A stretch of 64,000 nucleotides of DNA from a virus. Below, in pieces: positions 1-33,126 of the stretch; positions within the stretch are counted from its first letter, which is position 1; each line of letters begins with the position of its first letter. The notes below the pieces were generated by a model. It was not told the origin of the DNA, did no database searches, and worked only from the letters and a program-made list of their open reading frames with translations. Position numbers and translations under genes: made by a program. The stretch spans positions 1 to 64,000 of the IMG/VR virus record IMGVR_UViG_3300002042_000001; one strand, 5' to 3'.

Positions 1-62
1 TCAGGTAAAGCGGGTGCTTTGGGTGCATCAGATCGAAGGTTCGAATCCTTCTCGCGAGACCA
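1..62 (+). tRNA. tRNA-Pro(UGG), 3' portion only; 5' end lies upstream of the window
   Basis: anticodon arm ggtgc/tttgggt/gcatc; T-arm gaagg-ttcgaat-ccttc; acceptor 3' strand tcgcgag + A + CCA ending at 62. Confidence 0.75.
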
Positions 63-79
63 TTTGAAGGAGTATGAAT

Positions 80-202
80 ATGTTTGATATTGTAATTTTG
101 GTTGGCGTTGGCGCTTTCATTGGTTGGAATGTACCACAACCCGCAATCACCAAGCGCGCTCAAGACGCGGTTGTAAATTGGTTCGCAAGTCTGCGTACTT
201 AA
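80..202 (+). CDS. small hydrophobic protein (40 aa, MFDIVILVGVGAFIGW...)
   Basis: GAAGGAG at 66-72, 7 nt before ATG 80 (in-frame ATG also at 74); one TM-like segment; TAA at 200-202; below ORF-track size cutoff. Confidence 0.4.
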   Translation: MFDIVILVGVGAFIGWNVPQPAITKRAQDAVVNWFASLRT

Positions 203-419
203 AAGTTAGGCGGACGTTGGTGTTTCTAGGCACACGCGCACAACGTTTCGTCTTTTATTTTCACGCGAGGAGTAATGTTATGAAGTATGAAGGTACAAGA
301 GATATCACTAACCATGGTGGCGGTTCTGCTGACATTAGCGGTTTATGGATTGAAGGTTGGCAGGGTGAAAGGCCCACTATCGAAGGTTGCGGCCCATTTA
401 GGGTTCAGTAGTTGGAATT

Positions 420-496
420 TGGATTGTAGCTCAGTGGTAGAGCGGGGCGCTGTTAACGCCTGCCTGTCGTAGGTTCGAACCCTACCTGTCCAGCCA
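420..496 (+). tRNA. tRNA-Asn(GUU)
   Basis: D-arm tagctcagtggtagagc, anticodon loop ctGTTaa, T-arm gtagg-ttcgaac-cctac, encoded CCA; one acceptor mismatch. Confidence 0.85.
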
Positions 497-671
497 GATT
501 ATGCGGTAATGGTTAAGTCCATTATTACCGCTCCAAATTGACGCAGTTAACTTATAGAGACTGCCGAACGGGTGACCTAATAATTAGGATATAGTACGCA
601 GAATTAAGCGTTGAAAAATACCGAACGAACAAAAGCTTCTATATGACGAGGGAAAGACCTCAACAGTTTTA

Positions 672-743
672 GTCGGTGTAGCTCAGTGGTAGAGCAGTGG
701 TCTCCAAAACCGCGTGTCGTGGGTTCGATTCCTACACCCTCGT
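672..743 (+). tRNA. tRNA-Trp(CCA)-like gene with aberrant acceptor stem
   Basis: canonical D-arm, anticodon arm gtggt/ctCCAaa/accgc and T-arm gtggg-ttcgatt-cctac; 3' acceptor strand accctcg (736-742) does not pair with adjacent 672-678; its complement lies at 647-652. Confidence 0.55.
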
Positions 744-757
744 CATAAAGGAAGAAT

Positions 758-916
758 ATGTTTATCAAGATTTCACATTCACGCAAGATACGCGATAGGT
801 TGATTACGTCCAGTTATAGCATTCACGAAGACAATCATTTGGAATTGGCACGCGTAATGAAAGAAACGCAGAAGCTTTCGAAGTTACATGATGACTTTCA
901 AATACGAATGAATTAG
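758..916 (+). CDS. small hypothetical protein (52 aa) between tRNAs
   Basis: AAGGAAG at 748-754 before ATG 758; stop TAG 914-916 shares its G with tRNA-Lys position 1. Confidence 0.3.
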   Translation: MFIKISHSRKIRDRLITSSYSIHEDNHLELARVMKETQKLSKLHDDFQIRMN

Positions 917-991
917 GACCGTTAGCTCAGTTGGTAGAGCACCCGACTTTTAATCGGGTTGTCGCTGGTTCGAACCCAGCACGGTCCACCA
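916..991 (+). tRNA. tRNA-Lys(UUU)
   Basis: perfect acceptor ggaccgt/acggtcc, anticodon loop ctTTTaa, T-arm gctgg-ttcgaac-ccagc, encoded CCA. Confidence 0.9.
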
Positions 992-996
992 TTTTC

Positions 997-1082
997 GCGT
1001 AGGCTGGGCACGAGTGAGCCCACCGGACTGTAAATCCGACGCTTAACCGCTGTGAGGGTGCAAATTCCTTCTCTACGCACCA
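997..1082 (+). tRNA. tRNA-Tyr(GUA), long variable arm
   Basis: acceptor gcgtagg/tctacgc, anticodon loop ctGTAaa, 86 nt with extra arm, encoded CCA; T-loop reads tgcaaatt (atypical). Confidence 0.7.
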
Positions 1083-1137
1083 TTATCCACTTCAAATAGT
1101 TATCGAATCGTTTATAAGCATAGCTGACAATATCACT

Positions 1138-1554
1138 ATGAAAGAGAACGATATGAAAACATGGCAAGTAATCGGAGCAATCGCTCTAGTAGGTATCGGT
1201 GTACCAATCGGTTGTTCGGTAATGAACACCGCAACCACCGTTGCAACAGCGCCAGGAAAGGTTGTTCAAAAGACCTTTCAGGCGGACAACATCATCACAA
1301 ATTATGAATGGTACTACGACACTTACGCCGCTTATGAAGCGCGTTTGGGTCAGATTACCGATCATTCATCTTATCTCGAAGCTGAAGAAGATCGCATTGA
1401 AATTCAGCGGCTTCGGATTGAGTTGACCGCGATGCGACAATCTTGTCGTGATCTGGCAACAAAATACAACGCTAACTCGCAGAAGGTGAACAAATCCATC
1501 TTCAAGGGCGGCGCTGTACCTGAAACTATCGAAAAGGAAAAATGCAATGCGTAA
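1138..1554 (+). CDS. membrane/lipoprotein-like hypothetical protein
   Basis: ORF track 138 aa; N-terminal hydrophobic segment ending ...GVPIGC (lipobox-like). Confidence 0.6.
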   Translation: MKENDMKTWQVIGAIALVGIGVPIGCSVMNTATTVATAPGKVVQKTFQADNIITNYEWYYDTYAAYEARLGQITDHSSYLEAEEDRIEIQRLRIELTAMRQSCRDLATKYNANSQKVNKSIFKGGAVPETIEKEKCNA

Positions 1555-2020
1555 ACTATTTATCGGAATTGCTGCGATTGCAGCATTGGCTCTAACTGCA
1601 TGTGGACCTGATGAACCGCAGAAGGTAACTCAATCTCAAAAGGCTGCAAAGGCTGCTGAGTCAGTCACCTACAGCGAAAATGCAGAAATCGACAACATCA
1701 AGAACCGTCTGGAATTGACTTCAAATCCTGGCGCTCTTGGTTTTATTCTGCTGATGAACCAAGCCGGCCAACCAATCGCCTATTACGGCGTGAAGGGCAA
1801 GGTAACATCTTCGGGCAAGCGTCTGACCAAACCTTTCGAACGTGAATTCGAAGGTCGTCATGTGCCGGCGCCAAGCGATGAAGGCACATGGGGTTCAAGC
1901 GACCCGTACGTGTACTTCTGGACTACCAGCGGTCAATACATTCAATGGAATGGCGACTACCTGTACAGCGACAAGCCGTTCAGAACACGCGTAGAGCCTT
2001 TGGTGATCGCAACGAAATAA
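1547..2020 (+). CDS. lipoprotein (signal peptide + lipobox LTAC)
   Basis: ORF track 157 aa, MRKLFIGIAAIAALALTAC...; 8-nt overlap with upstream ORF. Confidence 0.7.
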   Translation: MRKLFIGIAAIAALALTACGPDEPQKVTQSQKAAKAAESVTYSENAEIDNIKNRLELTSNPGALGFILLMNQAGQPIAYYGVKGKVTSSGKRLTKPFEREFEGRHVPAPSDEGTWGSSDPYVYFWTTSGQYIQWNGDYLYSDKPFRTRVEPLVIATK

Positions 2021-2025
2021 GGTTT

Positions 2026-2102
2026 GTTGGCGGTAGCTCAGTTGGTAGAGCGCTAGTTTGTGGTACTAGAGGTCGCGGGTTCGAACCCCGTCCGTCACCC
2101 CC
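2026..2102 (+). tRNA. tRNA-His(GUG) with encoded G-1
   Basis: anticodon arm ctagt/ttGTGgt/actag, T-arm gcggg-ttcgaac-cccgt, extra 5' G able to pair with C73; 3' end ...cacccca (exact end +/-1). Confidence 0.8.
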
Positions 2103-2110
2103 ATATTGAG

Positions 2111-2166
2111 ATAGAACCCACCATACGGTAAAACGTATACGTGGGTTCTATACGTTTTACCGTATG
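2111..2166. repeat. two interleaved perfect inverted repeats (A-B-A'-B')
   Basis: A 2111-2121 atagaacccac pairs with A' 2141-2151; B 2122-2139 catacggtaaaacgtata pairs with B' 2149-2166. Confidence 0.9.
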
Positions 2167-2228
2167 CGCTTGACAGTTACGATCACAAGCGCTACTTAAT
2201 AAGTCGTAATAAGAGGTAATAACTGCTA

Positions 2229-2564
2229 ATGAGTAGAACAGAGAACCATTTTGGAATCATCACTGAAATATGTGACACGGTAACTGGCTTCGAGGCTAAG
2301 TATACGCTAGCGCAGAGTGAGCATAGTCTTGTTCCTGCCGACGATGACAGTGCGTCATACATCGACGACCCTGAATTCCAGTACGTCGCTTCCATTGACA
2401 TGATGTTCAAGATCGAGACAGAAGAGAACGAGTATGGGCACACTAAGATGTTGCCACTCGCGCCTCAAAAGTGGGCGTTCACTGCATCATTCTATAATGG
2501 TGGCGGTAGCTTGTCAGAAGTGTTGGATGATATGCTTGAAGAAGCGCTTGGGGAAACAGAATGA
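2229..2564 (+). CDS. hypothetical acidic protein
   Basis: ORF track 111 aa; AAGAGG before ATG; ATGA overlap with thyA start. Confidence 0.6.
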   Translation: MSRTENHFGIITEICDTVTGFEAKYTLAQSEHSLVPADDDSASYIDDPEFQYVASIDMMFKIETEENEYGHTKMLPLAPQKWAFTASFYNGGGSLSEVLDDMLEEALGETE

Positions 2565-3441
2565 CAACCACCGAATCAGAACAAACGTTCCTAAGATTGC
2601 TCGCGAACGTTCAAGCGAACGGTAATGACCGTGGCGACCGCACTGGTACTGGTACGCGCAGCATCTTTGGTATGCAATCGCGTTACGACCTGTCACAAGG
2701 TTTCCCACTACTGACAAACAAACGCGTACCGTTCAAGTCGGTAATTAGTGAGCTACTTTGGTTTATCGAAGGTAGCGGTGACGAACGGCGTCTCGCTGAA
2801 ATATTATACGGCAAAGATCGTCAAGAATTGACCGACAAGACAACCATTTGGACCGCGAACGCACACGCCGATTATTGGGTGAACCGTGGTTACAAACAAC
2901 AAGAGGGCGACCTTGGTTATGTATATGGTGCGCAGTGGCGAAACCAAGTTAACGCTGAAACAGGCGAAAGTTACGACCAGCTACAAATATTGATCGAGGG
3001 TATTAAGCGCGACCCTGAAGGGCGCCGGCATATTCTCAGCGCTTGGAATGCACCTGAGATAGATATGATGGCGCTACCACCGTGTCACGTCATGTCGCAA
3101 TACTATGTGCGTGATGGCTATCTCGATTGCCAGATGTATCAGCGCTCGAACGACCTATTCTTAGGCTCACCGTTCAATCTCGCAAGCTACTCGGCGCTAA
3201 CTATGATGATCGCACAGGTATGCGACCTGAAGCCAGGAGAATTCATCTATACGATGGTGACGCACATATCTATCAGAATCACATGAAGCAGGTCAATGAG
3301 CTTTTGAAACGCGCACCGCGACCAGCACCGATCTTGAGGCTGAACAAGTCCGTAAAAGAAATTACAGACTTCACCATGGATGACTTCGATCTTATCGGTT
3401 ACGACCCACACCCTGCAATCAAAGCGGATATGGCAGTATGA
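2561..3441 (+). CDS. thyA: thymidylate synthase ThyA, reading frame broken by a 1-nt frameshift near 3253-3257
   Basis: ORF 2561-3286 carries DRTGTGT, ALPPCH, QRSND.FLG.PFN.ASY; ORF 3127-3441 (other frame) carries GDAHIYQNH...YDPHP; junction acgatGGtgac. Confidence 0.85.
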
Positions 3442-4749: not shown

Positions 4750-4914
4750 ATGACTATGAACAAGAGTGATTACTTCAAAGCAGTAGCAGCTTGGGAGCGA
4801 CCTCGAATTCTACCGAAGCAGAACGGTGAGCGGTTTTACTTTAACCAACATGGCAAGAAGGTGGTCGTCGATGAAGACGAATACCAAGCCTCACTGAAAG
4901 AAGGAAACGATTGA
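4750..4914 (+). CDS. small hypothetical protein (54 aa)
   Basis: GGAG 7 nt before ATG 4750; TGA overlaps next ATG (TGATG). Confidence 0.45.
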   Translation: MTMNKSDYFKAVAAWERPRILPKQNGERFYFNQHGKKVVVDEDEYQASLKEGND

Positions 4915-13977: not shown

Positions 13978-14688
13978 ATGCGATATGTAAGGTTAGTGGC
14001 AGTCGAAGATGAATACGACAACACACCAGGATTGGCGATTAAAGGTTGTCGCACTGACTATGAAGGTTTCATGGCAGCGCGAGACGGTAACCTGATCGCA
14101 CATGACTTGATTGAACATCAGAACGGGCTTGAAAACATGGGTCCGGTATGGGATGAACTGCAAGCTCTCGGTGGTATATGGCACACACGCGGTCGTTGGG
14201 GTCAAATGCTTACCAAATACGGTTCGCACTTCACACCTGACTACCACATTGGCGCAAGCATTCAACAGATGCACGGCGACCACATGCTGAACGGTTATCA
14301 CCACTTTCACGATTGGGATTTACTCGGCCCCAAGCTCAACACATACGAACATTTGTACGACGAGGATTTCTTATTGTGTATCGAGCAAGCCAGAGGTTTA
14401 ATTGAAGGCGAACGCAAGTCACATTGCGAATGTCCAGACGATCACGAATATTACACCGCAGCACGTGACGCTATCTTGGCGGCGTCATTGCACCACCTAC
14501 GTACTGGCTTTCGCAAAGCAGAGCGACGCTTCGGTGGGTATGACTTCAAATCCCACGACACGTACCGACGCATTCAAGATGCTGTTAATGGTGTTGTGAA
14601 GATGGTCGATTTCGAAGGGCAAGAGTTTCTGCTAGGTTACAGCAGCTACGAAGCCACAATCAGCGAAGTATACGAAGAGGAATATTGA
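13978..14688 (+). CDS. hypothetical protein (236 aa)
   Basis: ATG 13978 at conserved leader spacing; ORF 13942-14688. Confidence 0.65.
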   Translation: MRYVRLVAVEDEYDNTPGLAIKGCRTDYEGFMAARDGNLIAHDLIEHQNGLENMGPVWDELQALGGIWHTRGRWGQMLTKYGSHFTPDYHIGASIQQMHGDHMLNGYHHFHDWDLLGPKLNTYEHLYDEDFLLCIEQARGLIEGERKSHCECPDDHEYYTAARDAILAASLHHLRTGFRKAERRFGGYDFKSHDTYRRIQDAVNGVVKMVDFEGQEFLLGYSSYEATISEVYEEEY

Positions 14689-14689
14689 T

Positions 14690-14965
14690 ATGCTCCACCC
14701 GATGAACCTAGACAACTCACAACCGCACAAAGATGGCGGTCGAGTATGGCCCTTCACACGCGCTGGTGGCTCACAGTTGGTCACCGTGCGACAGCTACCC
14801 AAACCAGTCGCCGGCATTCGGTACACCATACGCGTAACCAACCGCAGCGGTGAAAAGATCGAGAGTTGGGCTTACAAAACAATGACAGGCGCTAAGAAGC
14901 GTGTGATGTTAGAAATGCCAAAAATGGCAATGGCTTATGAGCAATCCCAATTGCAATCTCGTTAG
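14690..14965 (+). CDS. hypothetical protein
   Basis: ORF track 91 aa; contains 22-nt repeat 14708-14729. Confidence 0.5.
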   Translation: MLHPMNLDNSQPHKDGGRVWPFTRAGGSQLVTVRQLPKPVAGIRYTIRVTNRSGEKIESWAYKTMTGAKKRVMLEMPKMAMAYEQSQLQSR

Positions 14966-15002
14966 AAACTAGCTATGTTATTTCTAACAGAAAAGGAATA
15001 GC

Positions 15003-15545
15003 ATGACAGAGTTTGTAGGACACATTCGCGATGGTGGTTTGTTACCGCTAGCGCAAGATTTCGCCGCAGCAGTGATGTTAGCGGGTGACCAGAACGAAAC
15101 CATCCACCGCGAAGGTGAAGATGAAACTTATCTCAAACGTTGGTTTGTGGCTCGCAAGAACATGATACCAACAGTGATCGGTGAACGTATCAGCAAAGAA
15201 GAATCACGCGCAGTAGCGGGCTTCGTGCCAAGCATGGTAGAAAACGTTTACGTGCACAAATTCGGTGCAGGTGACGCGAACGAAACCTTGCACGATCATC
15301 CGTGGTGGAACGTGTCGCTGATAGTCTCCGGTGGGTACACCGAGCAACTGGATGACCGACTGGTCGAGCGCAACCCAGGCGATGTAATTATTCGACAAGC
15401 GGCTGATCGACATGCGATACGGCTAGTCAAACCTGACACCGTAACGATCTTTGGTACGGGCATCAAAGAGCGCGAGTGGGGTTTTTGGGTCGATGGCGAA
15501 TTCGTACATTGGCGTGACTTTCACAATCATACGAGGGAAATATAA
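15003..15545 (+). CDS. hypothetical protein (His-rich, possibly cupin-like)
   Basis: ORF track 180 aa; HDHPWWN ... H. Confidence 0.6.
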   Translation: MTEFVGHIRDGGLLPLAQDFAAAVMLAGDQNETIHREGEDETYLKRWFVARKNMIPTVIGERISKEESRAVAGFVPSMVENVYVHKFGAGDANETLHDHPWWNVSLIVSGGYTEQLDDRLVERNPGDVIIRQAADRHAIRLVKPDTVTIFGTGIKEREWGFWVDGEFVHWRDFHNHTREI

Positions 15546-15727
15546 TGGCCGAAGAAGGTAAATTTGCAGAACGTATGAAGATGCAGCAGCTTGAAATGCA
15601 AGTCGAGCAGGCAGAGCAAAACATGTCCATGTTGAAGAATGTGTTTCGAGAATTATTGATTGATCTTGATGATGAAAATTGGGATAGCATTATCGAAACA
15701 ATTGAGGGTTTTAGAGGTAAGGTATGA
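15545..15727 (+). CDS. small coiled-coil protein
   Basis: ORF track 60 aa. Confidence 0.55.
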   Translation: MAEEGKFAERMKMQQLEMQVEQAEQNMSMLKNVFRELLIDLDDENWDSIIETIEGFRGKV

Positions 15728-15948
15728 GACGCAAGCTAGAAGATGATGGCTTAATTCATATCGACCTTACCGGACCTGCGGGTAACGCGTATTCTCTCAT
15801 GGGTACGGCAGAGCAGATCGCTAAGTCAGAAGGTTGGGATGAACAGTAGATCGAAGCGCTGGTGGAAAACATGAAGTCAGGCGACTATGAACACCTAGTC
15901 TCGGTGTTGGATGATACGTTTGGGGAGTTGGTGGTTTTATATGAGTAA
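15724..15948 (+). pseudogene. 73-codon gene interrupted by in-frame TAG at 15847-15849
   Basis: ATGA-coupled start; 41 codons, TAG, 32 further sense codons; end overlaps next start. Confidence 0.5.
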
Positions 15949-16255
15949 ATTCACAGCAGAGTATCGCGTGGACAATCGCACTTTCAGTCTCGACATTGAA
16001 GCTGAAGGGTGGCAAGAAGCTGAATTCAAACTTGAAGCGTTGCGTGACAATGGCTACTTCGTAGAGAAAGACGTGATCGAGTATCAGTTGGACTCGTTCG
16101 TCTATCGAGCGCGTTGCAGGCATTTCGAGACCGAAGAAGAAGCACGCCGGCACTTGGCTATAATCAAGTTTCATTCACGCATAACGGGTGAAGTAGTGTT
16201 TCGCACGAAAGTGCCCAACTTCTTTGCTGGTCTGATATCAAAACGGATAGACTAA
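15941..16255 (+). CDS. hypothetical protein
   Basis: ATG 15941 within ORF 15911-16255. Confidence 0.6.
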   Translation: MSKFTAEYRVDNRTFSLDIEAEGWQEAEFKLEALRDNGYFVEKDVIEYQLDSFVYRARCRHFETEEEARRHLAIIKFHSRITGEVVFRTKVPNFFAGLISKRID

Positions 16256-16260
16256 CCCAC

Positions 16261-16288
16261 TATGCGAATCGTCGTAACGTGCTATTGA
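16261..16288 (+). promoter_or_regulatory. class I promoter TATGCG-16-TATTGA after AACCCAC
   Basis: element starts right after TAA 16253-16255; leader ACGAAAGGTAAACGAAATG. Confidence 0.5.
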
Positions 16289-16318
16289 TGGTGCACAAGC
16301 TAACGAAAGGTAAACGAA

Positions 16319-16597
16319 ATGCTTTTAGACACTATCACAGATCAAGAGACGCGCTTCACCATTGCAGACTTTGGTGATGGCGAAATCGGAATTATCGACA
16401 CCGATGATGCGCTGGAAAGCACAGACGTACCGTGGACGATTGAAATGTGGCAAGATCACGCTCACAACGGATGCGGAGCTAGCAACTGGCAACTTGATGC
16501 GCACAATCGCACACTCGACTTGGAATTCTGTAGCTCACGATCAATGACGACCGAAGAGTGGGATGACTTTCAAGATCACTTGGAAGAAATCGCATGA
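16319..16597 (+). CDS. acidic hypothetical protein
   Basis: ORF track 92 aa. Confidence 0.6.
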   Translation: MLLDTITDQETRFTIADFGDGEIGIIDTDDALESTDVPWTIEMWQDHAHNGCGASNWQLDAHNRTLDLEFCSSRSMTTEEWDDFQDHLEEIA

Positions 16598-17187
16598 ACA
16601 TTGACGAAATACGCCGCAGCAGTTACCGAAACTTTCACACGCGAGGGCTCGACTACGTTTGCCTAAGTCGTGGTGACAGTCTGACTGTGAAGGCGTATTT
16701 CATTCATGGTGACGTGACAGACGCACCAGAGCTTGTAGTGCCACACAATCATCGGTACGACTTCACCACACAGGTGTTGGATGGGCAAGTAAGTAACCAG
16801 ACATTCGACATGACCAACGGCGATGGCGTGCAGCTATTCGACTACCGCACACCGCTCAATGGTGGCGATGGTTTTACGTGGGTTGATGAATGCGGTCTCG
16901 AAGTGGCAGATGATATCTGCTATCACAAGGGTGAAACCTATCACCAGCGAGCGCATGAAATCCACACGCTGAAATTGCACAGCAAAGATACGGTGCTTAT
17001 ATTGTACCAGTTTGAAGACGTGTTGGATTTAAGCGAACCGTCGCAGTCATTTAGGATTGGTGACGGTAAAGAGCTACCGAATATGGATGGGCTCTATGAT
17101 GAATTCTCTAACGATCAGATCATGCAGCGGCTTGCACGATTGCGTCACCTTGGCTTCGAAACGAGACTATTAGATGGTTATGCGTGA
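16594..17187 (+). CDS. hypothetical protein (His-rich, possibly cupin-like)
   Basis: ORF track 197 aa, ATGA coupling. Confidence 0.6.
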   Translation: MNIDEIRRSSYRNFHTRGLDYVCLSRGDSLTVKAYFIHGDVTDAPELVVPHNHRYDFTTQVLDGQVSNQTFDMTNGDGVQLFDYRTPLNGGDGFTWVDECGLEVADDICYHKGETYHQRAHEIHTLKLHSKDTVLILYQFEDVLDLSEPSQSFRIGDGKELPNMDGLYDEFSNDQIMQRLARLRHLGFETRLLDGYA

Positions 17188-17204
17188 CAGAGAAGTTATC
17201 GAAT

Positions 17205-17315
17205 ATGATGGGTACTTATGGTCACCATATCAAACCTTACCAGCTACGCAAGAGCATTGAGCTTGACGAGCTTCTTAAATCGCACGGAGACGAAGATAAT
17301 TGGGGATTGTACTAG
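17205..17315 (+). CDS. 36-aa protein ending ...GDEDNWGLY
   Basis: ATG 17205; shares the C-terminal W-G tail motif. Confidence 0.4.
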   Translation: MMGTYGHHIKPYQLRKSIELDELLKSHGDEDNWGLY

Positions 17316-17352
17316 CCACTGGTGGTAACCGTTAGCGTCTGCTAACACAATA

Positions 17353-17565
17353 ATGAAAGTGAAGAAACGAATGGAACAAGACGTAGAGCAAGAATTGTGC
17401 GACGAGTTGGCAGCGTGGTGCAAGAAGAACGGGCTACCTGAAAGCGACCTTGATCGCTTGATGACTAGCGAAGGGCTCACCGACGATCAATACGAATGGC
17501 TCACCAAATACTCGGTGCGCTGGAACGAAATGATCGACGAGCAATACGGTTTAATGCCAGCATAG
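17353..17565 (+). CDS. hypothetical protein
   Basis: ORF track 70 aa. Confidence 0.55.
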   Translation: MKVKKRMEQDVEQELCDELAAWCKKNGLPESDLDRLMTSEGLTDDQYEWLTKYSVRWNEMIDEQYGLMPA

Positions 17566-17574
17566 GAGATAACA

Positions 17575-17991
17575 ATGGCAACAGAAGCACAAATTCAAGC
17601 CTCAATCGAAAGATCGCAGGCTAAAAAGCAACCAAAGGCGGAATTCAGCAACGCTGACTTGCTCGCTGATAGCGGTCTTAGCATCGCGCACTTCCAACGG
17701 GAAGACACCCCGTTGCTGCGCGACATGACGGTGGCGTATGATTGTCAATACGACAATATCATCACCATGGCGACCGCAGTATGTCACCGCAAGGACACGT
17801 TCTGCAAGAAATTCGGTACGCGTACGGCTATCGAAAACTTCCAGGCTGGTGAAGTAATTCGCATGCCACGTGACCGTTCGGTTACCGCATACCAGCAGAT
17901 CGGTCTTATGGTAGGTGCAATGATGCGTTCGCCAGAAGGTATGATGGATGCTATCCGCAAGGATATCTTCGAAGGGCGGTTTGACCGATGA
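17575..17991 (+). CDS. hypothetical protein
   Basis: ORF track 138 aa; GGAG before ATG. Confidence 0.65.
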   Translation: MATEAQIQASIERSQAKKQPKAEFSNADLLADSGLSIAHFQREDTPLLRDMTVAYDCQYDNIITMATAVCHRKDTFCKKFGTRTAIENFQAGEVIRMPRDRSVTAYQQIGLMVGAMMRSPEGMMDAIRKDIFEGRFDR

Positions 17992-18332
17992 ACGAAGATG
18001 ATGGCGTTGAAAACGTAGAAATTCTCGGTACGCATAACGTCGCAACCGATGGCCCATTCAAAGCATCTATGAGCGTATTGCTGATCGGTGTGGAAGGTGA
18101 GTACGAAGGTTACGACGCATGGGCAGAGATTGACCTGCCGGTGGGTATGCGACCGTCAGACGAGAAGCTTGAAGAAATGTTGGCGTGCGCCCTTGAGCAA
18201 GCTCCTGGCTTTCGTCTCGCAACGCGCAAAGAATTCATGCAACGTATCTTGGCTGAACGCACAGGTGCGGACGTGAATTTCAGTGTCCCAGGTCCGACTG
18301 AGTTTCGGTTGAAAGCGAAGGTTGATGGGTGA
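17988..18332 (+). CDS. hypothetical protein
   Basis: ORF track 114 aa, ATGA coupling. Confidence 0.6.
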   Translation: MNEDDGVENVEILGTHNVATDGPFKASMSVLLIGVEGEYEGYDAWAEIDLPVGMRPSDEKLEEMLACALEQAPGFRLATRKEFMQRILAERTGADVNFSVPGPTEFRLKAKVDG

Positions 18333-18669
18333 CGATGGTTTTATAGACTATACCAAGCCAATTTTTGACGATCAGGGTTTTCGCCTTTGCATTGTTAAGG
18401 TTGAGCTTCAAGATGGACAGTCTGTGACTATACCTGATACGGTGGAAAATAAGACTTTATGCATGTACATTGAAGAAGGTACGTCATTTGCTTTAGGGTA
18501 CTGGGCGTCAAATAACCGAACGTTAGACTACGCTTGGTTTGACTCTTGGGGTAATATGCATGATGTTAACAGCGCGAACGTAGGTGGGGAGTACCCTACT
18601 GGACCGATTACAAACGAGGATAAAAGTATGATTGACGCAGATAAGAATCCTCTTTGGGGTTTGATGTAA
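18325..18669 (+). CDS. hypothetical protein, C-terminal ...KNPLWGLM
   Basis: ORF track (TTG 18322 / ATG 18325). Confidence 0.6.
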   Translation: MGDDGFIDYTKPIFDDQGFRLCIVKVELQDGQSVTIPDTVENKTLCMYIEEGTSFALGYWASNNRTLDYAWFDSWGNMHDVNSANVGGEYPTGPITNEDKSMIDADKNPLWGLM

Positions 18670-18878
18670 TGAATAAAGCGCCACCCTTTGATGAAGCTCT
18701 GGTACGGCAGCGTTTGAAAACGCGTCACAGGGTGGCGTTAAACGTCATCAAGTTGCACTCTTGGGCGCCGAATGTGTTGATGTATTTCGTCCGCGAAAAA
18801 CTTATGATGGTCGATATGGATAAGGGTGGTAACCTAATGGGTACATCGCAAATCTGTCACGGCTTAGTTGAGCAATGA
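18669..18878 (+). CDS. hypothetical protein
   Basis: TAATG-coupled ATG 18669; contains class II-like box 18711-18727. Confidence 0.55.
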   Translation: MNKAPPFDEALVRQRLKTRHRVALNVIKLHSWAPNVLMYFVREKLMMVDMDKGGNLMGTSQICHGLVEQ

Positions 18879-18952
18879 TATCAATGGGTTAAGGCGTATT
18901 GGCTTTACAGTACGTTTACAGATCGTAACCGCTTTGGGAGTTATTTGTAAAC

Positions 18953-19132
18953 ATGGCAAGGAAGAAACCAAGACAGCGTTTCAAGAAGGTGAATAGTCAA
19001 GACTTGAAAGATCGCCGCAAGAGGTTCGCGGTGCGCAGAAAGGGCGCTCGCAAGTCAACCCTCGAAGAGCTAAACAAGCTCGACGAAGCAATCGCGGCGG
19101 AAGAGAATAACCCTGACTGGGGAATGTTCTAG
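18953..19132 (+). CDS. 59-aa protein, basic N-terminus, C-terminal ...NNPDWGMF
   Basis: ATG 18953 to TAG 19130-19132; just below ORF-track cutoff. Confidence 0.55.
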   Translation: MARKKPRQRFKKVNSQDLKDRRKRFAVRRKGARKSTLEELNKLDEAIAAEENNPDWGMF

Positions 19133-19136
19133 CCTG

Positions 19137-19165
19137 TTGCAACGCAGCATGCGAGTCGCTAATCA
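19137..19165 (+). promoter_or_regulatory. sigma70-like promoter TTGCAA-17-TAATCA
   Basis: followed by leader ACGAAAGGTTTTTAAC with ATC at the usual ATG position. Confidence 0.4.
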
Positions 19166-19280
19166 GGTTGCAACACAACGAAAGGTTTTTAACATCGAAA
19201 AATTAGCACAGGTAGTAGGTGGCGTAATCGGTCTCGGTGTCGCGTATCTTCTTATACAAACATTCTTTTGGATTAACTGA
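19149..19280 (+). CDS. small TM protein; start ambiguous (ATG 19149 without SD, or ATC 19194 at leader start position)
   Basis: frame ...IEKLAQVVGGVIGLGVAYLLIQTFFWIN, TGA overlaps ATG 19280. Confidence 0.3.
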   Translation: MRVANQVATQRKVFNIEKLAQVVGGVIGLGVAYLLIQTFFWIN

Positions 19281-19573
19281 TGACAGAAAGTCTTCATAAA
19301 TTCTGCGACCGCTACGGCTTAGATATAGCGCAGTTTGATAAGTTGTTCGCCAACCTCAAGCTAAACAAACCATATCAGGTCGATTGGTTGATGCAGTTTC
19401 ACCACCCAACGGTGCAGCGGGCTCTCGAAGAAGATATTACGGCGTTGCGAATGATACGTGACGATTATCGTAGGGCTGATGCGCAAGGTGACTTCATCGC
19501 CGCGCACCAGAATTGGAAAGCTGAAGTTGAGGCTATGAAAGATGAAGAAAACCCTCTATGGGGTCTATTGTAG
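19280..19573 (+). CDS. hypothetical protein, C-terminal ...EENPLWGLL
   Basis: ORF track 97 aa. Confidence 0.6.
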   Translation: MTESLHKFCDRYGLDIAQFDKLFANLKLNKPYQVDWLMQFHHPTVQRALEEDITALRMIRDDYRRADAQGDFIAAHQNWKAEVEAMKDEENPLWGLL

Positions 19574-21777: not shown

Positions 21778-21782
21778 CCCAC

Positions 21783-21811
21783 TTCACAAATCAGGAGCAA
21801 CGCGGTAAAAG
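21783..21811 (+). promoter_or_regulatory. class I promoter TTCACA-17-TAAAAG after AACCCAC
   Basis: leader TGAAAGGTAAGAACA followed by ATA. Confidence 0.45.
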
Positions 21812-21845
21812 GTGAGCGTTAAGACAAATATGAAAGGTAAGAACA

Positions 21846-22220
21846 ATAGGTACAAGATCACTAATATGCTTGGTTGAAGACGCAAGCATCAAAGGAATTT
21901 ACTGTCACTAGGATGGATATCCTGACCATAATGGCGCAATTCTCAAAGAACACTACCAGAATGAAGAAAAAGTCCGAGAGCTTATTGCGCTTGGTGGTAT
22001 CTCTTCGCTCGGACCTAACATTGGTATTAAGCACGATTTTAACAATAGCAACGAAGAGCCGTTCAAAGATATGGTAACGGCTTATGGCAGAGATAGAGGT
22101 GGCGGTGTCAATATAAGCTCTTTTTCAACCAAAAAGCAAGCCCGACAGTTTGCCGCCGAAATGTGGTGCGAGTATATCTATTTTTATAAAGATGGTAAGT
22201 GGACACATAGCAGGGTGTAA
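21846..22220 (+). pseudogene. 124-codon gene with ATA at the leader start position and in-frame TAG at 21909-21911
   Basis: IGTRSLICLVEDASIKGIYCH-TAG-DGYPDHNGAILKEHY...; single open frame to TAA 22218-22220. Confidence 0.55.
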
Positions 22221-22228
22221 TTACCATC

Positions 22229-22257
22229 TTTACGAATCGCATAATTTCCTGCATTAA
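22229..22257 (+). promoter_or_regulatory. class I-like promoter TTTACG-17-CATTAA
   Basis: leader GCACGACAAAAACGAAAGGTAAGAACAATG. Confidence 0.4.
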
Positions 22258-22288
22258 GGTTGCACGACAAAAACGAAAGGTAAGAACA

Positions 22289-22498
22289 ATGGCAGTATTC
22301 ACACTAGATAGCGACCAACGCAGGTTACTGGCGGATTGCATATCTATAGGGTATGAAGGTGCATTAGTAGAAGATGACTTAGCCCAAAACGATGATACCA
22401 TTGCAAGCATGATGGATGAACTTGAAGCGTCAAACCGTACAATCGAAATCACTATAATGCCGGTGGGTGCAGTCAACTTACATGATCGGGTAGAATGA
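22289..22498 (+). CDS. hypothetical protein
   Basis: ORF track 69 aa, conserved leader. Confidence 0.6.
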   Translation: MAVFTLDSDQRRLLADCISIGYEGALVEDDLAQNDDTIASMMDELEASNRTIEITIMPVGAVNLHDRVE

Positions 22499-23593: not shown

Positions 23594-23646
23594 CACCAGT
23601 TTGTCGAGCGCCACCGTTTGATTACCTTTCTCGCGGGGGCAAGCGG

Positions 23647-23698
23647 GAAAACCCGCCACGAGAGCTACCAAGCATCGTCGGCGGGTTTTCTTCGTCTT
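23647..23698 (+). terminator. rho-independent terminator with competing upstream hairpin
   Basis: gaaaacccgcc (23647-57) / ggcgggttttc (23680-90) + ttttcttcgtctt; 23643-23656 gcggg-aaaa-cccgc shares the same strand. Confidence 0.55.
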
Positions 23699-23788
23699 AA
23701 TTCCAATTGCCCATGGGTCTGCGCTGTTTATGGCTGCGCCAACGCGCTTGCCCCTTGTGCCCTTGGAATTAACCCTCAGACCCATGGG
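23697..23788. repeat. interleaved inverted repeats X-Y-X'-Y'
   Basis: X ttaattccaa 23697-706 / X' 23763-772; Y cccatgggtctg 23710-721 / Y' 23777-788. Confidence 0.85.
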
Positions 23789-23797
23789 AAAGGAATT

Positions 23798-23820
23798 GGT
23801 ACGGCAGCAAAGACATATAT
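23798..23820 (+). promoter_or_regulatory. class II box GGTACGGCAGCAAAGACATATAT
   Basis: copy of the GGTACGGCAGC..CATATA element. Confidence 0.45.
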
Positions 23821-23929
23821 GAGTTGGGAGCGGCTTGCCCTGTTTCGCAAATCGATATCCGCGTTGCATTGTCCATGGGCTCTTGCTGTGTTTCCCACAG
23901 GGTGGGAAACTTGCATCAATCGAACCCAC

Positions 23930-23957
23930 TTCACGAATCACTCCGAATGTTTATTGT
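23930..23957 (+). promoter_or_regulatory. class I promoter TTCACG-16-TATTGT after AACCCAC
   Basis: leader ACGAAAGGTAAGACAATG downstream. Confidence 0.5.
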
Positions 23958-23987
23958 GGTATGCAGACAACGACGAAAGGTAAGACA

Positions 23988-24125
23988 ATGTAGGAATTAT
24001 TATTAACAACCGACTGCGAAAATGAACAAGATATCGCAGAAGAGCTTGAAATAATCGCCGATATGGTACGCGATGGGTTGACCAGTGGTGAAACGCCGAA
24101 CGGTAACTGGTGGAGTTTAAAATGA
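23988..24125 (+). pseudogene. 45-codon gene with TAG as codon 2 (23991-23993)
   Basis: ATG at conserved leader position, then TAG, then 43 sense codons ending in ATGA overlap with 24122. Confidence 0.4.
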
Positions 24126-30883: not shown

Positions 30884-32125
30884 TCACCCCTTAATATTGA
30901 TTACCTGTCGCAGCGTGTGTAAAATTTCAACCAGATCGGGTTGCGCACCCATCACTGAGTCGATATCTTTGTACGCGCTCGGTGTTTCGTCGAGGGTACT
31001 TGCGTCTGCTCGCGTCTCGATACCTTCAAGCGCTGCCGCATGGTCTTCCACAGAAACTTTACGCTTCGCTTCAGACCGAGACATAACTCGACCAGCACCA
31101 TGACTACAACTATGGAAGCTGTCAGTATTTCCCAAACCCCGAACGATGAACGACTTTGCTCCCATACTACCAGGAATAATTCCCAAATCTCCTTCTCTTG
31201 CACGAACGGCTCCTTTCCTTGTCACCCATACATTCTCACCATAGTGGTGTTCGCGTGTCGCATAGTTGTGGTGACAGTTGATAGCGACCGCCTTGCTTGT
31301 AAACGGTTGTTTGATCGTGTCGCGCATAGCCATAAGTGTATTACGCATCATAATTTCACGGTTCAAAGCTGCGAAGTCTTGGCCCCAAGTCATCGCTTCG
31401 ACGTAATCATCAAACATTTCGGTATGCTCGACCAGATACGCCAAATCACGATCTGGCAGGTAATGGTCAAGATGCCAATGTTCAGCTTCGCGCTTTGCAG
31501 CGTTAATGAAATTCGTTCCGATACGGTTACCGACACCACGCGAACCAGAGTGAAGCATTACCCACACCCAACCTTCTTCGTCGAGACACACTTCAACGAA
31601 GTGGTTTCCACCACCAAGAGTGCCCAAGTGATGCGCGGTGTTTTGCAAACCGAGCTTCGGATATTTCTCAAGAATTTTGTCATATCGATCAGATAGCTTT
31701 TTGTTCCATTCTGAAGCGACGTGATTAGGTAGAGTACCCCAAGCACCACGGTCGATACCTTGTTTGCCGTTACCTGTGCGACCATGAGGAACCTTACGCT
31801 CAATCGCTGCGCGAATATGACCCAAACTATCGGGAAGATGCTCAGCGCGTAATGTCGTTTGTACAGCCATCATACCACAGCCGATATCAACACCGACCGC
31901 TGATGGAATAATTGCGCCTTTGGTTGCTACAACACTACCGACACAAGCCCCGTAGCCAAGGTGCACATCTGGCATGCCGGCAACATGTTTGTGAATGAAA
32001 GGTAGTGATGCAACATTTTGTAGCTGCTTAATCGCATTCTCGTCAAACTCCCGATGCGAATCCCAAAGCTTGAGGTTTTTCCCACCAAGCGGGTTCTGTC
32101 TATATGAATACATTTGCTCTGTCAT
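30884..32125 (-). CDS. rtcB: RtcB RNA ligase (3'-phosphate/5'-hydroxyl)
   Basis: DIGCGM, HSGSRG.GN, INCHHNY, GSMG, HGAGR motifs; TAATG-coupled ATG 32125. Confidence 0.9.
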   Translation of the reverse strand: MTEQMYSYRQNPLGGKNLKLWDSHREFDENAIKQLQNVASLPFIHKHVAGMPDVHLGYGACVGSVVATKGAIIPSAVGVDIGCGMMAVQTTLRAEHLPDSLGHIRAAIERKVPHGRTGNGKQGIDRGAWGTLPNHVASEWNKKLSDRYDKILEKYPKLGLQNTAHHLGTLGGGNHFVEVCLDEEGWVWVMLHSGSRGVGNRIGTNFINAAKREAEHWHLDHYLPDRDLAYLVEHTEMFDDYVEAMTWGQDFAALNREIMMRNTLMAMRDTIKQPFTSKAVAINCHHNYATREHHYGENVWVTRKGAVRAREGDLGIIPGSMGAKSFIVRGLGNTDSFHSCSHGAGRVMSRSEAKRKVSVEDHAAALEGIETRADASTLDETPSAYKDIDSVMGAQPDLVEILHTLRQVINIKG

Positions 32126-33126
32126 TAGCTTAGACCATCTTTGCTCATTCTGGTCAGATACCACTCTTTCGCTTTCTGCGAAATTGGCTTCGAGATTTCT
32201 TTCTTCTCGTAAGGAAGCGCGGCGATAGTGTCACCTTCTTCCTTCATAATATCTGCGAAGACCCACTTCAGGAAGTCACCTATGTAGCGCATTTCCAATT
32301 CACCACCTTTATCGAGAACAGCTTCTTGCAAACCTTGCTCTAAACGGCTCTCTGTGACGAATGTATCGACCACGTTGTTGATACCTTCAATATGCTCAAT
32401 ATCGACCTTAGCGAGCTTTGAGACGCGACTAGAGCTATGCTTCTCACCCTTTACCTTGAACCAGTAATCGCTCGACAACCAGTCGTCGTCAACGCACTTC
32501 CAAACAATACCTTCCCCGACACCATCGGCGATACCGAAGTGTTTGGCGACCGGACACTCAGCCTCGATCTTCAGCGTAAGGTCAGCCATCTTATTCTGCA
32601 CAAGGTGCGGATTATTGAAATCGATCTGCACCGCAAACATTGGGAAGTCAACGATCAGATAGATATTCGCCTCTTCACGAGCGGTAAGCGGCATGATCGG
32701 TTTCCACTCGTCGTTGATGCGCAAGGCGAAAACCATAAACATCTTCGCCAATTCGCTGATACCAACCGCCTTCTGGATGCCTTCACCACACCACTCGCCA
32801 TAGACCGTGATACGATCTTCATTGGTGCAATCGAATTGTTCACGAATTTCACCGATAAGCCACATAACCGACTTTTCATTTTCGGACATGTGCTTAGCGA
32901 ATCCGGCGTGATCGTCGCCTGGAACAAGTACACGGTTCTTCGACCGATATTCGATCTGGTCATCGCGAACCTGAATAGAAGCATTAGTACCGTGCAGCTT
33001 CACCGTACCGTGAAAGGTAAGCGTCGGTAGTGGTTTCTCATGGTACTTACAATGCTCGCGCACCTGTCGCACCGCGTTACGAAACTGACCGATAGAAGGC
33101 ATTTTATTTTTTACATTTGTCATCAC
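32125..33126 (-). CDS. ATP-dependent RNA ligase (Rnl2 / DRB0094-like nucleotidyltransferase)
   Basis: motif I KLHGTN, VYGEWCG, EGIVWK, FKVKGEKH. Confidence 0.75.
   Translation of the reverse strand: MMTNVKNKMPSIGQFRNAVRQVREHCKYHEKPLPTLTFHGTVKLHGTNASIQVRDDQIEYRSKNRVLVPGDDHAGFAKHMSENEKSVMWLIGEIREQFDCTNEDRITVYGEWCGEGIQKAVGISELAKMFMVFALRINDEWKPIMPLTAREEANIYLIVDFPMFAVQIDFNNPHLVQNKMADLTLKIEAECPVAKHFGIADGVGEGIVWKCVDDDWLSSDYWFKVKGEKHSSSRVSKLAKVDIEHIEGINNVVDTFVTESRLEQGLQEAVLDKGGELEMRYIGDFLKWVFADIMKEEGDTIAALPYEKKEISKPISQKAKEWYLTRMSKDGLS

Follow-up and report, generated by a model that had tools for sequence, protein, structure and literature searches.

Does the in-frame TAG at positions 15847-15849 mark a phage gene that is being lost, or one whose full-length product is still made by suppression or read-through of the amber codon? 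A first-pass annotation of the stretch of viral DNA concerned (64,000 nucleotides, here called the window) had left this choice open. The evidence favours decay.

A tRNA cluster opens the window. Small genes on the plus strand form a long series, whose products include a thymidylate synthase, a DnaQ-like exonuclease and an HD-domain protein. On the minus strand, one block encodes RtcB, a helicase, a CMP kinase and two ligases, one for RNA and one for DNA. The late genes form a further block (terminase, portal, capsid and tape measure), which also encodes a tail protein cut off by the end of the window after more than 1127 aa. The large terminase resembles, at 53-57% identity, its counterparts in siphophages of ~105-120 kb that infect Stenotrophomonas, Rhizobium, Xanthomonas and Klebsiella, and it has more than 2000 matches in T5-like phages whose hosts are Salmonella, Vibrio and Escherichia. 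The window is part of a tailed phage, which we read as a marine T5-like siphophage. A megablast search of positions 14000-18000 against GenBank phages gave no match, and the region thus has no annotated close relative in that set. The RtcB gene (E 1e-126) adjoins the RNA ligase gene (30884-33126, minus strand), and the two likely form a tRNA-repair module in a phage with its own tRNA set.

The interrupted gene is closely linked to both of its neighbours. Its start codon (15724-15726, plus strand) overlaps the stop codon (TGA, 15725-15727) of an upstream 60-aa, coiled-coil-like open reading frame (15545-15727, plus strand) in an ATGA arrangement. From there, the frame reads through 41 sense codons, MRRKLEDDGLIHIDLTGPAGNAYSLMGTAEQIAKSEGWDEQ, to the TAG and then through 32 more, IEALVENMKSGDYEHLVSVLDDTFGELVVLYE, to a TAA at 15946-15948, giving 73 codons when joined. 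Its 3' end is overlapped by the ATG at 15941 that opens a downstream 104-aa gene (15941-16255, plus strand). This layout agrees at every position with the one first described. Because of the overlap at 15941, coupling to the downstream gene would be lost if ribosomes stopped at 15849, leaving that gene with only a weak GGTGG Shine-Dalgarno (SD)-like element. Exact-product look-ups for the 60-aa and 104-aa neighbours, and for the neighbours of the two further TAG-interrupted loci described below, returned nothing on record; in two of these look-ups, the GTG taken as the start may have been wrong.

An open run of 32 codons beyond a stop is not rare, its chance probability being (61/64)^32, or ~0.2. 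The gene exceeds chance because its homology spans the TAG, not because of the length of the open run. The composition of the frame points in the same direction. Codon-usage log-odds trained on the long open reading frames of the window are positive in this frame only, on both sides of the TAG (+12.0 before and +6.7 after it), and the score of the downstream part (0.21 per codon) compares with the 0.18 that accepted small genes have on average. No further lesion is found in this part of the frame.

When the joined 73-aa sequence was compared with profile collections, PHROG_1933 gave a single HMM match that runs across the TAG (residues 11-64, profile positions 12-66 of 71, E 2.7e-13). Proteins annotated as hypothetical in many phages, Melnitz, Ac42, Acj9 and PSTCR6 among them, also match, with 50% identity over residues 11-72 for the Melnitz phages. 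A family profile built from four metagenome homologues (cut-off E <= 1e-3) found 2271 cluster representatives; the best 150 are nearly all 70-110 aa long and match almost the whole profile. None of the 113 aligned family members ends before the TAG column. Two conserved motifs, (I/V)DLtGPxGNA and MKSGDYxxL...FGE, are present in the gene and form invariant columns in an alignment with the homologues P0001-P0004. The most conserved one, M-K-S-G-D-Y...F-G-E, lies 3' of the TAG, in the segment at 15850-15948 (plus strand), where it reads MKSGDYEHL...FGE. The uninterrupted frame of ~70-80 codons that is usual for the family is here broken by a TAG at codon 42. Judged by its sequence, therefore, the stretch from 15724 to 15948 is one 73-codon gene with an in-frame amber codon, as the first-pass annotation had proposed, and a disrupted member of PHROG_1933. 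As to the function of the family, searches of Pfam, NCBIfam, PDB sequences and, by Foldseek, of the PDB and BFVD structures yielded only uncharacterised phage proteins or noise.

The likely consequence of the interruption follows from the predicted structure. An AlphaFold (AF2) model of an intact relative (pLDDT 88) shows a compact beta-alpha-alpha-alpha-beta fold, in which the first and last strands pair, and places the TAG where helix 2 begins. The part up to and including the TAG (15724-15849, plus strand) encodes strand 1 and helix 1, and the segment behind it helices 2-3 and the terminal strand. According to this model, the 41-aa product cannot form the family fold, since it lacks helices 2-3 and the strand that pairs with strand 1. 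The TAG column itself is variable and indel-prone, with E, K, D and Q all occurring and a gap in 39% of the members, so that any residue inserted there would probably be tolerated.

The closest relatives reveal the state that preceded the TAG. Two metagenome contigs (L002 and L003), which share 95.5% nucleotide identity with the window over ~3 kb, carry an intact 74-aa gene with CAG (Gln) in place of the TAG, a single C/T transition at 15847. The 74-aa metagenome protein is 95% identical to the joined sequence across its whole length. The search with the joined sequence that had been suggested at the outset thus identified glutamine as the residue at this site in the closest relatives and homologues that do not end there. 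The interrupted gene differs from its 95.5% relative by six substitutions in 225 nt; this number is too small to test for selection, and a dN/dS analysis was dropped as uninformative. In the neighbouring genes, synonymous changes outnumber non-synonymous ones. Related short contigs come from the JGI metagenome samples 3300002030, 3300000217 and 3300002035 (prefixes BBAY60 and LBB22012). Exact 30-mer scans around the TAG, with N at the variable base, gave no matches in IMG/VR and the metagenome contig collection, and an IMG/VR search with the protein of the intact relative retrieved only relatives at ~55% identity.

Only one base separates the TAG from the CAG of the sister sequences, and the related metagenome contigs contain error-like indels, which raises the concern that the T at 15847 arose in sequencing or assembly, or that the consensus here reflects a minority variant. 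We consider this highly improbable. The errors seen in the metagenome contigs are indels, not substitutions, and the TAG recurs in another contig (L030), from a different sample record, that is 99.5% identical to the window over positions 15580-19287; both read GAACAGTAGATCG at this site. L030 does not represent the same assembly, since relative to the window it has two deletions (of 1 nt and 8 nt), a run of Ns and one SNP, and the presence of the TAG in two non-identical assemblies makes a sequencing error unlikely. On these grounds, the TAG is probably not an artefact. Neither of the two outcomes that the first-pass annotation had named as refuting it, homologues ending at this position and an error at the TAG, was borne out. 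The two deletions, at L030 positions 520 and 2583 (window positions 16099 and 18163-18170), frameshift two genes that are intact in the window and reflect either real decay or assembly errors of the metagenome contig.

The region has also gained and lost whole segments. The 60-aa open reading frame upstream of the interrupted gene lies on an insertion of 192 nt (window positions 15533-15724) that is absent from L002 and L003, its junction falling in codons 1-4 of the interrupted gene; L030 is identical to the window over the part of this open reading frame that it covers (from 15580). Conversely, ~300 nt at positions 2568-2874 of L002 are absent from the window. Further downstream on the plus strand, at 17353-17991, a 70-aa gene ends with a TAG (17563-17565) and an in-frame 138-aa gene starts at ATG 17575, three codons on. 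Two genes are also called here in L002 and L030, and this TAG arrangement is therefore probably coincidental. The overlapping pairs of open reading frames at 4911/5413, 6071/6261 and 41994/42424 were considered as candidate frameshifts or pseudogenes and rejected as ordinary separate genes.

Taken together, these data lead us to regard the locus as an accessory early gene, in a marine T5-like phage, that a CAG>TAG change has recently turned into a null allele, a reading to which we assign a probability of roughly 0.72. The gene would be one copy of a family whose single-domain proteins of ~74 aa are widespread among phages, located in the early/accessory region, and a single C>T transition in the sub-lineage of the window would have changed CAG (Gln42) into TAG. 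Under the standard code, ribosomes would stop at 15849 and release the 41-aa fragment. Because this fragment is predicted not to fold, the allele is most likely null or strongly hypomorphic; in a dispensable gene, it would amount to a young pseudogene. The 32 downstream codons would be intact because the lesion is recent and little time has passed. As expected of a young pseudogene, the stop is one base away from the CAG of a relative whose 74-aa gene is intact, and the truncated product lacks, in the AF2 prediction, elements needed for the fold. We infer a loss of function, with the full-length protein made at most in traces through ordinary near-cognate read-through. Such read-through of TAG is mostly due to tRNA-Gln, which would restore the sister sequence. 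Among the points that count against a null allele are that all three premature stops in the window are TAG and that the frame behind this one is free of lesions and gene-like in its codon usage.

The gene could also have been split rather than silenced. Ribosomes would then stop at 15849 and reinitiate 21 nt downstream at the internal ATG 15871, producing two peptides, of 41 and 25 aa, whose association might rebuild the domain. This ATG follows a weak SD-like sequence (GGTGG) at a distance of 5 nt and encodes Met50, which is kept in 108 of the 113 homologues, so that the ATG was there before the TAG, and in the model strand 1, contributed by the N-terminal fragment, pairs with strand 2, contributed by the C-terminal one. 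However, the intact relative L002 likewise has both the ATG and an SD-like sequence (GATGGA), so that nothing has evolved to support reinitiation. Moreover, the 25-aa piece lacks most of helix 2, none of the 113 aligned family members is split, and the scenario is purely inferential. We therefore judge a functional split to be very unlikely.

Even less can be said for programmed read-through, in which the TAG would act as a regulated, leaky stop that yields two isoforms of different length. In its favour, an A comes directly after the TAG, and the long frame is translationally coupled at both of its ends. Against this, the stop is not conserved, with CAG in the closest relative and no family member stopping at this position; it lies inside a single compact domain instead of between domains; and the RNA downstream of it lacks a stimulatory structure, its folding being no better than that of shuffled sequences (z = +1.03). 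This mode of expression is thus extremely improbable. Ribosome hopping was rejected as well: the codon preceding the TAG is CAG, no codon matching it, as needed for landing, was noticed nearby when the downstream sequence was inspected by eye, and a structure is likewise absent.

The alternative with the widest implications is that the TAG is decoded as sense, either by a phage tRNA encoded elsewhere in the genome or by an amber suppressor of the host, yielding the full 73-aa protein. In-frame TAGs would then be tolerated or regulatory, and could represent an early stage towards TAG recoding. In E. coli, amber codons followed by A are comparatively leaky and well suppressed, and a supE-type suppressor, like near-cognate read-through, inserts glutamine, the ancestral residue of the gene. 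An ancestral glutamine is also what is seen in phages that read TAG as Gln (10.1101/2021.08.26.457843; PMC9523058). In addition, the frame behind the TAG is intact and coding-like, the phage has its own tRNA set, its genome has been seen in part only, with the replication genes lying outside this part, and all three premature stops in the window are TAG, with no gene found to be interrupted by TGA or TAA. The last point carries limited weight: given the codon usage of the window, a random nonsense mutation produces TAG with a probability of ~0.41-0.43, so that three out of three corresponds to p ~0.07.

The way in which the window uses TAG argues for the standard code. TAG terminates 21 of the 118 genes in a crude map based on open reading frames, 14 of them at least 60 aa in length and some of them, such as the portal and tail-region genes, belonging to the late block. 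The in-frame extensions beyond these terminal TAGs are short and have non-coding scores, and late genes ending in TAG fit their PHROG profiles nearly to the end (positions 1-109 of 114, 3-122 of 127 and, for the portal, 4-469 of 493). TAG thus serves as a normal stop of late genes. Whereas recoded phages are recognised by a gain in coding density above 5-10% once TAG is translated (10.1101/2021.08.26.457843), the density of the window, estimated with a crude caller based on open reading frames, falls from 82.7% under code 11 to 80.8%. The GC content is not low (given as 47-49% and, more broadly, as 43-50%), and the in-frame TAGs sit in small early or accessory genes rather than in the structural or lysis genes that are favoured in recoded phages.

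Nor does the part of the tRNA complement seen so far contain a suppressor. The first base of the window lies inside a tRNA, of which only the 3' part is present, and the cluster at 1-2103 (plus strand) comprises this partial tRNA-Pro and tRNAs for Asn (GUU), Trp (CCA), Lys (UUU), Tyr (GUA) and His (GUG). The Asn, Trp, Lys and His genes and the partial one were found with ARAGORN and Rfam. The probable class-II tRNA-Tyr, which has a long variable arm and directly follows the tRNA-Lys gene (997-1079, plus strand), was missed by ARAGORN and emerged from a permissive Rfam scan with 28.7 bits, just under the 29-bit gathering score; its GUA anticodon disqualifies it as a suppressor. The tRNA-Trp (672-742, plus strand) is weak, scoring 42.6 bits over model positions 8-63 only and showing two mismatched acceptor-stem pairs, and may be degenerate or have mis-bounded ends. 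The first-pass annotation had pointed out that the array continues upstream and might include a CUA-anticodon tRNA. It does continue: a contig (L027) that is 98% identical to window positions 1-2690 and reaches 3.7 kb further upstream contributes tRNAs for Met (CAU) and Pro (UGG). These are the only ones it adds, and they are preceded by a 472-aa open reading frame, tail-fibre-like by eye, so that the array as seen so far starts there. None of the seven tRNAs (Met, Pro, Asn, Trp, Lys, Tyr and His) in the window and the 3.7 kb of L027 has a CUA anticodon, and a suppressor encoded elsewhere retains a small weight. For comparison, a CUA suppressor tRNA is present in about 40% of recoded genomes.

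The first-pass annotation had grouped the locus with two other in-frame TAGs as three cases of the same kind. Both TAGs exist, at 21909 and 23991, but the loci are of differing kinds. The first (21846-22221, plus strand) matches PHROG_1987 (E 2.1e-25). It begins with an ATA behind a conserved GAAAGGTAAGAACA leader, exactly where 119 of 120 retrieved homologues have their Met start. Its TAG (21909-21911) replaces a Trp that is invariant in all 120 (YCHWDGY motif), and its C-terminus is ~20 aa shorter, with 118 of the 120 homologues extending at least 13 residues beyond it. With three independent lesions (ATG>ATA, TGG>TAG and truncation), the gene is, by comparison with its family, a decaying pseudogene, and it shows that accessory genes of this region do decay. 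The homologue search found no close relative (best ~54% identity), so the lesions are polarised against the family only, not against a sister strain. To judge from these alignments, no Gln-inserting mechanism would rescue the gene: the ancestral residue differs from the Gln at 15847, and suppression would restore neither the ATG nor the missing C-terminus.

At the second locus (23988-24125, plus strand), an ATG is directly followed by the TAG and 43 open codons, which have a modest coding score and whose end overlaps the start of the following gene (ATGA). The locus shares its leader with the PHROG_1987 gene, has no homologue among 5.8 billion proteins and may represent either a start-stop element or an allele with a nonsense mutation in its second codon. 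The leader belongs to a promoter-like unit that occurs three times on the plus strand (~21779-21848, ~22225-22291 and ~23925-23990) and consists of 'cacttcacRaatc' or 'tttacgaatc', a spacer, 'cgaaaggtaagaaca' and the start codon. The units precede small genes, two of the three with damaged starts (ATA and ATG-TAG). Next to the last of them lies a GC-rich intergenic stretch of ~330 nt (23600-23925, plus strand) with a folding energy of -126.9 kcal/mol (z = -3.6; none of 100 shuffles as good). Within it lie long hairpins that carry CCCATGGG motifs, as well as one hairpin resembling a terminator. The stretch has no match to an Rfam family and may represent a repeat element or else a structured RNA.

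The three in-frame TAGs do not form a coherent suppression signal, given that TAG is a normal stop, that no CUA tRNA was seen, that one of the loci is a pseudogene with an ancestral Trp and that the preponderance of TAG has p ~0.07. Nothing in the window points to TAG recoding or suppression, and the genome otherwise uses the standard code. We therefore regard suppressor-dependent expression of the 73-aa protein as unlikely. The broader proposal that an amber suppressor exists in this phage lineage or in its marine host, with TAGs in early accessory genes being tolerated or throttling expression, appears distinctly improbable.

The finding looks real but ordinary, a knock-out mutation in a dispensable gene. 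If the interpretation as a recent null allele is correct, the locus should be annotated as a disrupted PHROG_1933-family gene and not as a 41-aa protein. It would then provide no evidence for an alternative code, and the window should be translated with table 11. Its nonsense allele, the multi-lesion pseudogene and the indels the size of whole open reading frames would illustrate the turnover of an accessory region in a marine T5-like phage at a level of about 95-99% identity. Only if suppression were to operate would the locus bear on how stop-codon recoding starts in phages. It would then capture a standard-code, mid-GC T5-like phage at the first step towards TAG recoding, for which a route has been proposed in which a suppressor is acquired before in-frame stops accumulate.

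Several known systems share features with this locus. In programmed read-through, as exemplified by the A1 protein of Q-beta (at UGA) and retroviral gag-pol (at UAG), an in-frame stop is likewise followed by an open, protein-like frame. The stop at 15847, in contrast, is not conserved, interrupts a single domain and has no stimulatory structure. The TAG-recoded ('genetic code 15') phages, among them crAss-like and Lak phages (10.1101/2021.08.26.457843; PMC9523058), resemble it in having TAG in place of Gln and phage-borne tRNA genes. Unlike them, the window contains just one to three sites in 64 kb, all in early accessory genes, keeps TAG as a terminator of structural genes, shows no gain in density, no suppressor tRNA among those seen and no low GC content, and has Trp as the ancestral residue at its second site. 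Of the four features that define TAG recoding, three are absent: a density gain, the disuse of TAG as a terminator and a consistent Gln. The fourth, a suppressor tRNA, was not seen among the seven tRNAs of the window and L027.

A further parallel is provided by the decaying accessory genes of large lytic phages. Here, too, the lesions sit in small, non-core genes, and the region gains and loses genes between close relatives. The neighbouring locus at 21846-22221, with its start loss, nonsense codon and truncation, is an example, whereas the gene at 15724 has acquired one lesion so far. The classical am mutants of T4 and lambda carry CAG>TAG changes and grow only on supE, supD or supF hosts. 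They share with the present allele the single transition, the glutamine ancestor and the open frame downstream. The allele described here differs in that it is natural rather than laboratory-selected and affects a small accessory gene, which is probably dispensable, so that no suppressor would be needed for viability. In these respects, the locus behaves like a classical amber allele and not like the TAG-recoded phages.
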